In this document: positions 3,722 to 59,556 of the stretch, piece after piece | Position numbering within the stretch: the first letter of the stretch is position 1 | How the letters are laid out: the number at the start of each line of letters is the position of its first letter | NCBI GenBank assembly: GCA_951406725.2 | Contig: OX597830.1 | Coordinates: 34,410,001-34,474,000 of the forward strand | Length of the DNA: 64,000 nucleotides | Direction of reading: 5' to 3' | Source: Octopus vulgaris | Lineage: Eukaryota | The notes under the pieces: model-generated | The model's database searches: none | Seen by the model: only the letters and a program-made list of their open reading frames with translations | What the model was told of the DNA's origin: nothing | Program-made: the position numbers and the translations under genes

Positions 3722-3900
3722 TAAAGGGAAATTTTTACGAAAATAAACAAAAGACGAAGGCAGGTGGAGTACAAAAAAATGTATTAGTATAGCGCTCAGG
3801 AATAGAAAAAGTCTTTTACGTTTCGTGCCTACGCTCTTCGACAGAAAGATACACAGAAAAAAACAAGGAGATAAAAAAATACGTGTAGGAGCTGCCGATA
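3722..3900 (-). mobile_element. Penelope-type pLTR-like short element carrying a minimal hammerhead (family H1)
   Basis: Homologous to 56613-56810; inserted between (TA)n and (CA)n tracts; contains the hammerhead fold at 3812-3849. Confidence 0.6.
3812..3849 (-). ncRNA. Putative minimal type-I hammerhead ribozyme, A6U core variant
   Basis: Minus strand: tcttt CTGTCGA a gagc-gtag-gcac GAAA cgT A aaaga. Stem I tcttt/aaaga; stem II with 1 mismatch; palindromic ACGT stem III. Confidence 0.5.
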
Positions 3901-4307
3901 CACGCACACACACACACATATATATGCATGTATGTATGTATGTACGTATGTATGTATGTATGTATGTATATATGTATGTATGTCTGTATGTATGTATGTA
4001 TGTATGTATATACGTATGTATTTGTATAGGTTTGTTCCACTTAGTAATAACGGCACCAGCAACCAGCTGTTAGAATTCAACATACTTATACTTCACAGTG
4101 TTCGTATATTCAATTGTGTTCCGTAACAACGAAATACGGCCTCGAAGTGGGTTTCAGGAAGCTATAAGATATCTCACTAACACTCAACTCTGACTATATA
4201 GGTGTTTTTTTTATACTAGGAAGTACTCTAAGATAACGGAAAGGATTACATAACTCTTGTTTCATTTATTAGTGTGTGCAAGTGTGTGTCTGTATATATG
4301 TATATGA

Positions 4308-4970
4308 GTGCAGGAGTGGTTCAGGAGTGATAAGGCGGCGAGCTGGCAGAAACGTTAGCACGCCGGGCGAAATGCTTAGCGGTATTTCGTCTGCGTTACG
4401 TTGTGAGTTCAAATTCCGCCGAGGTTGACTTTGCCTTTCATCCTTTCGGGGTCGATAAATTAAGTACCAGTTACGGACTGGGGTCGATGTAATCGACTTA
4501 ATACCTATGTCTGTCCTTGTTTGTCCCCTCTGTGTTTAGCCCTTGTGGGTAATAAAGAAATAGGAAATAGGTTCAGGAGTGGTTAGAAGCTTGCTTACCA
4601 ACCACATGGTTCTGGGTTCAGTCTCATTGTGTGACACCTTGAGCAAGTGTCTTCTGCTATAGACTCGGGTCGACCAAAGCCTTGTGAGTGGATTTGGTAG
4701 ACGGGAACTGAAAGAAGCCCGTCGTACACAAACACACAAACACACACACACATATATACGCTTGTGTGTCAGTGTTTGGTCCCCCCCCCCCACCATCGCT
4801 TGACAACCGATGTTGGTGTGTCTATGTCCCTGTAACTTAGCGGTTCGGCAAAAGATAGAATTAATACTAGGCTTACAAAGAATAAGTCCTGGGGTCGAGA
4901 TGTTCGACTTAAGGCGGTGCTCCAGCATGGCTGCGGTCAAATGACTGAAGCAAATGAAAGAGTAAAGAGT
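4308..4970 (+). mobile_element. tRNA-derived SINE family A (~400 nt, CORE-like; probably octopus OR-type), interrupted by a family B SINE
   Basis: gcaggagtgg...ggttcagtc..accttgagcaagtgtcttct...gaagcccgtcg-(microsatellite)-...ggccgcagtcaaatgactgaa..gtaaagag; many copies in the window. Confidence 0.9.
4330..4569 (+). mobile_element. SINE family B, young full-length copy with 12-bp TSD
   Basis: aaggcggcgagctggcagaaacgttagc...gagttcaaattcc...gactttgcctttcatcctttcggggtcgataaattaagtaccag...aataaagaaatag; TSD GGTTCAGGAGTG at 4318-4329 and 4570-4581. Confidence 0.9.
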
Positions 4971-5077
4971 ATACACACACACACACACACATATCATATA
5001 TATATATATATATATATATATACATACATGTATATATATGAGAGAAAGAAAATGGAATTCACGAGATTCTTTATTGT

Positions 5078-5124
5078 TCACTACGATCGTTTCGACCCAT
5101 CGTGCATCGGTGCCTCGCAGGTGA
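5078..5124 (-). ncRNA. Degenerate minimal hammerhead in a short (TA)n-flanked element (~5040-5195)
   Basis: Minus strand: tcac CTG-CGA ggcaccgatgcacgatgggtc GAAA cgatcgT A gtga, then AATAAA. Core lacks A6; stem III palindrome ACGATCGT. Confidence 0.45.
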
Positions 5125-6619
5125 GATGCTATAAAAAAAACTCTGGTGCATCGAAGGTGTGGACTTGGCAGCAGGTACTTGGTTTCTTAATATTTATTAT
5201 ATATATATGCGTGTGTGTGTGTATGTATGTATATATGTATATATATGTATGTATGTATATATATATATATATATATATATATATATATATATATATATAT
5301 ATATATATATATCTGAATGGAGTTATAGATATCATACGATAAAGTAAACAGTATTGATGAATATGGTCATCAATTTTCGACCAGTTTAAAATAACAGTTC
5401 CTCTCGAACTAGTCTGCATCGTAAAAATTAGAAATGATACTGACTGAACAAAAATACGGGATTTTCCTTGAAACATATCTGTAACATCAAGATATGGCTA
5501 CTATTTTTAGTTAGTCAAACGATCGTATGTTGGTCAGTTTTCGTTTTATAATTTGGTCAAAGGAAAACGTGGACTCATCGTCCGTTAGCCTTAGAGATCC
5601 TCTAGTAGGTTTATGTTGCTGCTAATTAATCGGTAGTTTTCTAGGTAGGTCGATGTCTCAAAGGAACGTGATACTGTTTCTGATTCATATAATTTTATAC
5701 AAGATGGTTTTATTTCTTGTTCGGTGTTACATGCGAAAATGTTCCCTTATAGCGACGTATAATGTCAAATATTATACGTCCCGATGTATCAGTTTGTAGA
5801 GTCATAATGTTTGCTACTTTCGTGTTTATATTGAAATTTGTATATTATATCAGATTTTAGAGAAACATTAATTCTGTGGTTTTCGAGTTTGAAGCTTCAT
5901 GTTAAGGAATATTATTTTCAATTCTATCCGTATCACACACTACAAATATGGACACGAGTAGAAGATCCATATATTGTCTTGTGGGTTACGGAAATGATAA
6001 TTTCTCTAAATAATTTTTTCGCATATAAGGTACTTTTTTCGTAGGGTGTGTATACATACCTGTATATTACAATTTCTATATAGTTTATATTACAGTAACT
6101 GTAATAAAATTGCTTTCTACATCCGAAGTAGTAAATATGTCACTACATTTGCTAGTTCTGTGTGAAACTTTTAGGAATTCGTTCGCTGCGCATATCCTAT
6201 TTTTCGTATGTTTCTGTCTGTTTAATGAGTAGCTGTATTATCTGAGAGATTGTAGATCGGAGGTAGATTCTCTGTTTGTATCTAGAGAGCAATAGATGTA
6301 TTTTAGATTAATCTCGTCTACGTATTGAAAAGAAAATTGATCAGATTTGACCGCTTGCAGCAATAATTAATTGGTTCAGTATAAAATTTAACTACGCAGT
6401 ATTGTCTTTATTCTGACAAATTTGTTGATTTTACACTGTGTATTTTCGAAAAGTATTCATCTTTATTGTAGCTTTTACATATTAAAATATTATCATAGTT
6501 TCTCAGATCCTGTGGATCCAACATAAGATTCTCGTTAAGAAATTTCGTTGTGATTACACTGTCGTTCATGCCATTACACCTAAATAAGTCCTGCAGTTTA
6601 TCAATGTTTAAAATGCATT

Positions 6620-57222: not shown

Positions 57223-57367
57223 GGCCATCTGAAAAACGCTATGAAAAAATACCGTTATTTTACAGATCAATTTCCTCTATTTACATAATATTGAGGTCTC
57301 TTTCTTTCTTTTGTTATCTTACCGTTTTTACCAATATATATATATATATATATATGTATATATATAG

Positions 57368-57673
57368 CAGTGGCAGGCTGGCTAGGTTGTCAGCTTGCTC
57401 GATGGCAAGTGGGCCCCTGTGCCATTAGAATCCATATAAGGGGACCCACGTTAGTATCTAAGGAGCCCATCCCCTCAAGTTTGCAAATCTTTTATTCACT
57501 CCTGGAAGAATCCATTATTTCAGCCTGGCTGTATTTGTAGACAGTTGAAAAGAATACTTTTAACAAAAAAAAAAAATTAAATCATAACATTATAGATGTG
57601 AGTGGACCCCTTGTAGTTGCAGGTGGGTCCCCTTAGCTTCCTGGCAACCAATATTTTTAGACCCGGTCTGCCA
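57368..57673. mobile_element. Possible hAT-type MITE
   Basis: Imperfect TIR tggcaggctggct / cccggtctgcca; internal gg(g/a)ccc motifs; sits within (TA)n. Confidence 0.4.
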
Positions 57674-57829
57674 TATATATATATATATATATATATGGAA
57701 AAATGCTAGCATGGAAAACGGACGCTAAACGATGATGATGATGATGATGATATATATATATATATATACATATATATGTATATACATATATATGTATATA
57801 CATATATATCTATGAATATAAAAGAATTA

Positions 57830-58345
57830 ATGTCATGACTGATCTCAATTATTGAGACCACCTTAAAGCATTGAAATTCTATTCTCTGCAGTGTTTCCAT
57901 GAGCAATACATAATGTGCACGATGTGGAGAGCATATCACCAGCATTGCCCAAACTACCTCAACATTAGTTTCAGAATTCATCCAAGGCCAGGACCATGGG
58001 CCATACATCCTCTGCCCAATTCAGGATCACAATACATAAATACACTACAACACAAATTCTTTTCCTCAACAGGCCCTGCCCTATTTAAGATTATTCTAAA
58101 ACAGATCAAAGAGGAAAAGGATCCCATTATCTTTAAACAGAAACTGGACAAATTTCTTCAAGGGATACCAGAGAAGCCACCTATACCTGGATACAGCTCA
58201 TTCAACAAGAACTCGTGACTTGAATGGACCATGATACACAAAACTTGACTTAAAAAGGATTTAACAAATCCTATCAGGTGGTGCTGTTAAATTAGACATG
58301 GCCTGGGTCAATCTTTGGTCAAAACATATCTAAGTTAGCTAAGTT
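57830..58345 (+). mobile_element. CR1-type LINE 3' end
   Basis: NY*DHLKALKFYSLQCFHEQY (cf. YWDRLK.LKLYSLQRRRERY)...GPALF..FKQKLDKFLQGIPEKP; 3'UTR like 37050-37130. Confidence 0.85.
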
Positions 58346-59356
58346 ATATATATATATATATATATATATATATATATATATATATATATATATATATATA
58401 TATATATATATGTATATATATGTATATATATATATATATAAGAGGTATTGGTATCCAGAAGACCCAAGATAGCAGGTAAGACTATGTAAGTGCTCTGGGA
58501 GGACTGTAGTTAGACTCCCGGTTTCATAATGATATGAGTGAGGAGTGTAATGCGGGTCTTGTCTGAGCTTTATTTAACACACACACACATATATGTATAT
58601 ATGTAGATAATATATATATATATATGATTTCCATTGAATTTTCATTTTTATTATTTATTATATATATATATATATATATATATATACACACATATATATA
58701 AATCATATTTCCACGCAGCATGTATTAGTCATCTCCTCAAGAATGAGAGGCATAACTTCAGGCCATCTTACTATAGATAACGTTGCCTTCATATACTACT
58801 GCCTCAGCATTTTAACATTATTTGAGCTGGCATGCCTCTCTCTCTTGGCATGGGCATTCCGTTTCTGTTCATCTTGATGATTTATATGTTTTGCTGTTTT
58901 GTATATTCAAAATGCAACAATAAATCATTTTCAAACTGCTTGTATTGAATTCCCATGGGTTGGAAAGGTTTTATTAGTACCAAGAAGCTTTTAGCTTTGC
59001 TGGACTTCACATTTAATAAGTATGGGGGTATAAACCAGATAATACTGCGAAGACTATTTTTAGTTATGAAGTTTTGTGTATTAGGCATTTATTTTTGTCT
59101 TTAAAGGTGATATTTGTCATAGCACTTTTCAAATATGAGGCCACTTGGTTGCAGTATATATATTCTTCCAAATTTGCTGGAGAGATTTTTGAAAAATATG
59201 GCATGGGGAGACATAATTTGGTTATGGTGCTTATATGAGGTATGGGACTAAGTTTCTGGTGATAACTTTAATCTCTCTCTCTATGTATATATATATATAT
59301 ATATATATATATATATATATCTGTCTGTCTGTCTGTATGTATATATAAATATATGC

Positions 59357-59556
59357 AAGAAGAAAATGGATGTAAATAACAAGGAGAAACTCGCCATTTT
59401 CGCTGGTATGCCTTTAATTTAATTAATTTAGTAGTTTTAGTAAAACTAGTAAATTGAAACGATCGTAAATGCTACCTTCTTCTTTGTTAATTAGATTAAA
59501 GGCATAGCAGCAGAACCAACGAGTTCCTCTTTGTTATTTACATCTATTTTCTTCTT
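59357..59556. mobile_element. Inverted-repeat element enclosing a hammerhead 3' half
   Basis: ~70-bp imperfect arms; centre aatttagtagtttt-agt-aaaactagtaaatt followed by GAAACGATCGTA (59456-59467). Confidence 0.7.

Follow-up and report, generated by a model that had tools for sequence, protein, structure and literature searches.

The window analysed here is a stretch of 64,000 nucleotides (nt) of the Octopus vulgaris genome (assembly GCA_951406725.2, contig OX597830.1, positions 34,410,001 to 34,474,000 of the forward strand), and our subject is eight short pieces within it that carry all or part of a minimal hammerhead ribozyme. These had been singled out in a first-pass annotation made from the sequence alone, and all eight were found where that annotation had placed them (Table 1). 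A genome-wide search (2.8 Gb in 227 contigs; 40 candidates scored per family) showed every piece to belong to a dispersed repeat family. The copies at 3812 and 56707 are 77% identical and so represent one family; the eight pieces thus fall into seven families, labelled A (3812 and 56707), B (5078), C (9108), D (53698), E (57160), F (26432) and G (59357).

Table 1. Hammerhead-bearing pieces and a broken Penelope-like gene in the window. Clade types are those assigned from translated sequences. pLTR stands for pseudo-long terminal repeat, RT for reverse transcriptase and UTR for untranslated region.
Feature	Positions	Strand	Remarks
Family A pLTR fragment, Penelope/Poseidon-type	3720..3894	-	hammerhead-like motif 3812-3849, A6U core, mismatch in helix II; (TA)n on both sides
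Family B fragment	5036..5191	-	helix III together with the 3' half of a hammerhead of the long-helix-II kind (5078-5124); deletion has removed the true 5' core
Family C intron-less pLTR leader, Neptune-type	9015..9180	-	canonical hammerhead 9108-9148; (TA)n on both sides
Family F head-to-head pair	26432..26591	.	minus arm about 26432-26497 (3' half); plus arm 26498-26591, decayed core
Family D retrozyme-like monomer fragment	53680..53956	+	canonical hammerhead 53698-53742
Broken remnant of family A parent	54562..55807	-	RT thumb, linker, GIY-YIG (54982-55807), then 3' UTR; stops short of its own hammerhead
Second family A copy (subfamily)	56614..56806	-	motif 56707-56744, A6U core, broken helix III; 3' end abuts another repeat
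Family E insertion, Neptune-type parent	57128..57334	.	minus arm 57128-57260, U4C hammerhead 57160-57222; (TA)n on both sides
Family G head-to-head pair, Neptune-type parent	59357..59704	.	minus arm 59357-59426, plus arm 59436-59556, one-sided tail 59557-59704

Six of the pieces had been read as complete or nearly complete folds. This is true of two, 9108-9148 and 53698-53742, which are complete and canonical, whereas those at 3812, 56707 and 57160 have variant or damaged cores and the one at 5078 has no true core. What had been taken for a core at 5078-5124 is a degenerate inner duplicate, the 14 commonest forms of which are all non-canonical; the CTGANGA core of family B has its place about 80 nt further upstream and has been lost by deletion from the window copy. 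The other two pieces, 26432-26591 and 59357-59556, had been described as inverted-repeat elements, but each is in fact two truncated copies joined head to head, both arms of the family G pair being truncated within or after helix II; longer copies of these families hold whole hammerheads. The family E insertion consists of a minus arm joined head to head with an inverted 3' tail (57261-57334). In the family C copy a short first exon is joined to the hammerhead exon at 9158/9157, a junction 4 nt shorter than that of most intron-less copies. Lodging in (TA)n tracts, said to be the rule, applies to five of the eight pieces (those of B, C, E and G and the 3812 copy of A), which lie in or beside such tracts, but not to those at 53698, 56707 and 26432. 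Two GIY-YIG Penelope remnants had also been reported in the window. One is clear, on the minus strand; the other is possibly a weak 27-residue match to a Neptune-type linker region at 59912-59992, likewise on the minus strand (E = 0.003).

Four of the families are linked to genes of Penelope-like elements (PLEs). Among the 30 best GIY-YIG matches for family A, 20 have a family A copy 300-1100 nt downstream on the same strand, and a 1098-codon frame with the Pfam domain RVT_1 lies between two family A copies; animal homologues of this frame carry RVT_1 and many also carry GIY-YIG (PF01541). Family G continues upstream into a cysteine (Cys) linker and a GIY-YIG domain, and 12 of the 30 best matches of that domain have a family G copy 400-1100 nt downstream. 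For family E, a same-strand Neptune-type endonuclease ends within 450 nt of 13 of the 25 copies with extra upstream sequence. Family C is represented by a full element at locus L309, where RT, Cys linker and GIY-YIG lie between two intron-bearing pLTRs; partial tandems of this kind, with a pLTR on both sides of the open reading frame (ORF), were found for families A (L319) and E (L336-337) as well. In all four families one ORF encodes RT and, C-terminally, GIY-YIG and has a pLTR at its 3' end, RT being recognized by Pfam and GIY-YIG by its motif and by the domains of homologues. A Cys linker between the two domains, the clade criterion in the sections of Craig et al. (2021, PMC8557442) drawn on here, is seen in translations of C, E and G and is absent in A, which assigns the first three to the Neptune type and family A to the Penelope/Poseidon type. 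Since A, C, E and G join directly onto RT/GIY-YIG genes at other places in the genome, their short copies are to be regarded as 5'-truncated PLE ends, that is, pLTRs. The first-pass proposal, in which the pieces are either solo pLTRs or resemble retrozymes, come from five or more families and target simple repeats, is thus upheld, with seven families, gene linkage for A, C, E and G and a tandem retrozyme array for D (see below). That the elements abut Penelope ORFs holds for these four families, but no such ORF was found for B and F.

Copies of several families often end at or near (TA)n. The 3' end has such a tract no more than 25 nt away in 31 of 35 copies of A, 17 of 22 of C, 19 of 22 of E, 14 of 24 of G and 11 of 24 of D (46-89%, against a background of 7%). 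Inverted pairs occur in all seven families, and the tail of family C consists of the first part of the element body, which comes after the upstream pLTR. At head-to-head junctions in C, E and F (L067, L072, L095, L097, L099 and L122-L135) the join often uses short complements within the hammerhead region, either the RNA start with the core or one strand of helix I with the other. We also considered whether hammerhead cleavage sets the 5' ends of insertions. This is unsupported, as 5' ends do not cluster at the cleavage site: of the unselected 5' ends, the number no more than 3 nt away from it is 0 of 19 in A, 0 of 35 in C (23 of these 35 belonging to intron-bearing copies that stop aligning at the acceptor), 0 of 6 in G and 1 of 20 in D. 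Copies of family F, in which no intron was seen, often start at the same seven-letter motif as the fixed start of family C (window position 26498; L122-L139 and L385-L409), and in F this motif can pair just past the cleavage site, extending helix I.

Family C has intron-bearing and intron-less forms. Its longer copies have about 1030 nt between two positions that are adjacent in the window copy; this insert starts with GT in 14 and ends with AG in all 16 of 16 distinct copies, and no Rfam family, the group I intron included, matched L309. A pattern covering both kinds of junction has 117 exact matches, and among 100 listed 73 are intron-less and 27 intron-bearing; with 199 exact genome matches to the start of the hammerhead exon, this corresponds to roughly 85 intron-less copies, or four in ten. 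In the 22 intron-less copies covered, just one reaches upstream beyond a fixed start point, which we take to fit an initiator consensus. Of 20 copies found by upstream (element body) sequence, 18 keep the intron. The intron-less copies are likely to come from spliced RNA, as the exact loss of a GT-AG insert points to a sense, spliced template. Intron-less copies show seven loop II variants, six of which are shared with intron-bearing copies; this indicates repeated intron loss, and identity between the two classes is 98.0%, compared with 98.2% and 98.0% within them. On both counts, descent of family C from one intron-less master of the short interspersed nuclear element (SINE) kind is ruled out.

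Inverted pairs of family C are matched in their arms. Among 27 distinct pairs, a set partly chosen by junction type, exactly one tail is present in 25, and both arms carry the same loop variant in 22 of 23 (chance 0.20). By splice state, 14 pairs have both arms intron-less, 8 have both intron-bearing, 1 is mixed and 4 could not be classed; in a list drawn up blind to splicing, 13 of 14 classed pairs among the matches listed agree (P about 0.002). An antisense template has been proposed to explain head-to-head pairs and intron retention, in a section of Arkhipova et al. (2013, PMC3846280) that calls the question open, the alternative for retained introns being an unspliced sense template. The intron-less copies with their fixed 5' point, together with the matched arms, favour a sense-RNA template over the antisense one. 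Our literature search found no report of spliced PLE copies.

Family D aligns over its whole unit to a 359-nt tandem array met in a random stretch (L249), in which neighbouring units are 99% identical and each has a hammerhead, and which has an inverted arm and (TA)n ends; from these features the array appears to be a retrozyme inserted with the Penelope signature. It is young, with about six direct and two inverted units between (TA)n tracts (L249, 2100-4800; C1 at 20.00 Mb), and no run recorded as RNA was listed as containing its unit; contigs of runs presumed to be RNA cover the unit piecewise, giving no usable ends or joints. In 10 of 22 family D copies the sequence wraps around, the copy's own 3' sequence recurring just upstream; the family's own 20 loci show this wrap-around but no direct tandem with two hammerheads. 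One could therefore suppose that all the short pieces belong to independent SINE-like or retrozyme families that spread as hammerhead-cut circular RNAs and are not the ends of autonomous elements. Circular permutation of D, its homology to an array with a hammerhead per unit and the common fixed 5' start of many C and F copies would suit this view. The continuation of A, C, E and G into RT/GIY-YIG genes already refutes it for those four, however, and the shared loop variants and equal class identity of C leave no room for a single intron-less master; it holds for D only, and as a general account of the pieces we consider it improbable.

The type I minimal features CUGANGA, GAAA and UH are present in C, D, F, G and, with its upstream core, B. 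Conservation of the core across genomic copies, which the first-pass annotation had left to be checked, is borne out, cores being fixed within families such as C and G: CUGANGA is found in 43 of 45 copies of C, where sequence variation concentrates in loop II, and in 18 of 18 of G. In older families it is found in 18 of 30 regex matches of D, 9 of 20 for F and 6 of 15 for B (upstream core). Families A and E do not have CUGANGA as family core. That of A is CUGU-N-GA (A6U). The genome holds 17,348 exact 28-letter cores of this family; position 6 is the canonical A in 197 of them (1.1%), and all four letters occur at position 7. That of E is CCGAAGA (U4C), in 41 of 44 copies and likewise in the one in the window. 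Helices I and II and a self-complementary helix III are present across families but broken in the 3812 copy (helix II) and the 56707 copy (helix III); pairing of helix III between two copies is possible in A, C, D, E and G and impossible in the 56707 copy. In predicted single-strand folding, none of 9 monomer stretches exceeds its shuffles in stability (z between -1.4 and +1.3), a result left out of the support because an unstable helix III is to be expected.

The A6U core of family A would likely weaken cutting. Another change at this position, A6C in phage Bcep176, is natural and, in the sections of PMC3088659 and PMC7151607 drawn on here, cleaves slowly in Mg2+ and better in Mn2+. The octopus core resembles it in the position changed and differs in being A6U and the master state of a family with more than 17,000 copies. 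No paper on an A6U core was found in our literature search, nor is one mentioned in those sections, though Lunse et al. (2017) may list it.

Descriptor searches place these motifs above chance in the genome, and only weakly so in the window. Within the window, the canonical descriptor matched twice (mean in shuffles 0.25) and the loosest five times, two of these matches lying outside the first-pass list (mean 1.05 and maximum 4 in 40 shuffles); a strict descriptor, in which helix III must be self-complementary, was passed by the family C motif (9108-9148) alone, with 0 matches in 20 shuffles. The window alone is thus weak evidence, and the support lies in the families and in a wider sample. 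In a genome sample of 40 evenly chosen 10-kb stretches (399,900 bases) there were 13 canonical matches at 7 loci and 19 relaxed matches at 13 loci, and none in each of 8 shuffles, so that the proposed comparison with shuffled sequence succeeds for the genome sample and only weakly for the window. The sample gives one intact motif per 21-57 kb, which replaces the earlier figure of roughly one per 8 kb and extrapolates to 49,000-133,000 genome-wide. The suggestion that this layer is unannotated was correct in that Rfam misses these families: at gathering score its hammerhead model passed none of 11 of their loci, a single control locus passing, and genome-wide 8 of 73 scored candidates pass RF00163. 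On the window, with E up to 10, no hammerhead was found among 150 of 447 matches listed, which are microsatellite noise.

Several further families came to light in these searches. An eighth, very abundant family resembling A, with no match in the window, has 10,264 exact 29-letter cores; its core is CCGACGA (U4C) in most copies listed, its outer helix I pair is swapped, and CpG decay reverts many copies to the canonical core (seen at L410-L421 and at random loci L263, L267, L269, L272 and L277). Rfam Hammerhead_1 matches over or near the cut-off (L162-L168) represent further families absent from the window, among which three loci on C16 and two on C9 share equal scores and lie about 80 kb or more apart. 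Young Neptune-type families (L199, L200, L203, L205 and L216-L218) have open frames of up to 908 codons and many near-identical copies, tandem and inverted; at L199 a long-helix-II hammerhead lies about 2 kb past the ORF. Another Neptune-type family (L207, L214 and L215) has a U4C core and a helix II insert of about 100 nt downstream of long open frames, and an apparently intact 342-codon Tc1-like transposase frame lies inside a family G parent (L159, 3631-4656, plus strand).

The first-pass annotation went on to propose a self-cleaving RNA layer inside introns. If such a layer were active, the dispersed copies would cut host intron RNA. The extrapolated tens of thousands of intact-looking motifs, and a helix III that is self-complementary in the families of five of the six window motifs tested, lend this some appeal. 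Most copies are decayed or variant, however: two of the eight window pieces are complete and canonical, and A6U is the core of the commonest family. In the experiments reported in the part of PMC4209133 drawn on here, cleavage was absent for single minimal motifs and low for dimers; inverted partners lie on opposite strands and so do not allow dimer pairing within one transcript, and an active lizard element gave no RNA ends at the site (PMC11167929). With no pile-up of 5' ends at the cleavage site and no host gene or convincing host-gene domain identified by Pfam in 201 window frames, the proposal is unsupported, and we judge such a layer quite unlikely. That repetitive, AT-rich DNA has yielded the folds by chance, as the up to 4 loose matches in shuffled windows, the unremarkable monomer folds and the one misread motif of six might suggest, is scarcely credible and already refuted at family level by the genome-sample counts of 13 and 19 against 0, by cores fixed within families, by the concentration of family C variation in loop II and by positions in pLTRs as published.

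We therefore regard the pieces, with a high degree of confidence, as short insertions of seven families, four linked to PLE genes with RT and GIY-YIG and one to a tandem retrozyme array, in which a PLE enzyme likely nicked (TA)n DNA and copied the hammerhead-bearing end of the RNA and nothing more. A single sense RNA would serve as the template on which both target strands are primed, at two AT-rich sites close to each other, one at the pLTR end and one at the tail end, and the two cDNAs would stop early or at the RNA 5' end and be joined via short complementary stretches. Nicking and extension of both strands, AT-rich targets and internal initiation have precedents (PMC11167929 and the sections of PMC4209133 and PMC8557442 drawn on here), and cleavage is unnecessary for insertion in vitro (PMC11167929). 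The template would be uncleaved at the hammerhead, which would make the motif a passenger in these copies. The short copies of family C would derive from a spliced leader that starts at an internal promoter of the pLTR, and D, probably with B and F, would have been moved by the same enzymes. Any cleavage would depend on pairing between the self-complementary helices III of two copies and would be expected to proceed slowly. A wider generalization, for and against which we see equal weight, is that PLEs copy sense RNA whether spliced or not, with both arms made from one RNA primed twice; intron retention would then reflect which pLTR was copied, most solo pLTRs would be retrocopies of the 5' leader, and the A6U motif would be active in some unusual condition or kept as a non-cutting signal.

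Several results weigh against this interpretation. Pfam did not name GIY-YIG in any element frame scanned, so that the assignment of this domain rests on motifs and on the domains of homologues. Neither B nor F could be clearly linked to a parent gene (none of 25 loci that extend upstream for B and none of 25 loci for F); their upstream homology runs for several hundred nt with no linked ORF, and they share the anatomy of the pLTR pieces with the gene-linked families. Association with (TA)n is weak in the same two families (5 of 28, or 18%, for B and 1 of 23, or 4%, for F). In family E, 3 of 17 unselected 5' ends lie exactly at the cleavage site; these are ambiguous, because inverted junctions use a 6-nt helix I overlap there. 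It is possible that the matching of arms in family C stems from gene conversion or from DNA copying of one arm. Finally, the family copies are mostly top-scoring matches and not a random draw.

Little else in the window was recognizable. Pfam searches of the 201 frames gave no GIY-YIG, RT or convincing host exon, the single notable match being a Mariner/Mos1-type transposase helix-turn-helix fragment at 31945-32277 on the plus strand (HTH_48, E = 2e-5). Imperfect tandem repeats of 34-76 nt run across a 258-codon open frame at 35928-36700 that has no Pfam match. Two similar open frames on the plus strand, 36705-37043 and 57856-58215, also without a Pfam match, end in a DKFL..IP..PP motif, presumably the C-terminus of a protein of a long interspersed nuclear element.

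Minimal hammerheads in the pLTRs of metazoan PLEs have been published (Cervera and de la Peña 2014, PMC4209133), and variants that cleave as dimers are credited to Lunse et al. (2017) in the relevant section of PMC6765202. Our literature search found no report of hammerheads in octopus, though Lunse et al. (2017) may list this host, and the octopus repeat annotation of PMC13282606 describes active Penelope families and, in the sections of its main text drawn on here, leaves ribozymes unmentioned. The phenomenon seen in the window belongs to a class already in print, to which it adds one more animal genome; the value lies in the intron-less copies and matched arms of family C and in the fixed core variants. 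With about 85 exact intron-less copies and pairs that agree in splice state, this young family offers a countable genomic test of the PLE template question, one that favours sense RNA, and the fixed A6U and U4C cores of successful families bear on whether PLEs need hammerhead cutting at all.

The comparisons that follow refer to the sections of each source drawn on here. As in PMC4209133, there are many consensus families per genome, mostly as single dispersed motifs from truncated elements, with opposite-strand pairs 100-700 bp apart, an extra base after A9 and a palindromic helix III. Unlike the consensus there, which is CUGANGA with one U3-A8 variant, the two commonest families seen here have U6 or C4, and B and F carry helix II inserts of 50-110 nt. 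The endonuclease-bearing (EN+) Neptune and Penelope/Poseidon elements of Craig et al. share with ours their partial tandems, inverted 5'-truncated copy, one-sided tail and microsatellite bias, and likewise a Cys linker before GIY-YIG in Neptune (C, E and G) and none in A; tails are about 75-150 nt here compared with 30-40 there, and introns are described there as retained, while intron-less and intron-bearing pLTRs are about equally numerous in family C. Non-LTR retrozymes (PMC7229834; bioRxiv 10.64898/2026.07.22.740005), for which an origin from PLE pLTRs has been proposed, resemble the relative of family D in being non-coding repeats with a type I hammerhead per unit (359 nt here, 350-390 bp in mussel); family D is dispersed as single turns, and the head-to-head inversion and (TA)n ends of the array are not described in those sections. 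Closest to family C is Penelope of Drosophila virilis (Schostak et al. 2008, PMC2377424), with a start site in the pLTR, a short first exon and then an intron, and a hammerhead just past the acceptor (PMC4209133); the octopus intron is about 1030 nt long as opposed to 75 nt, and genomic intron-less leaders are abundant here.

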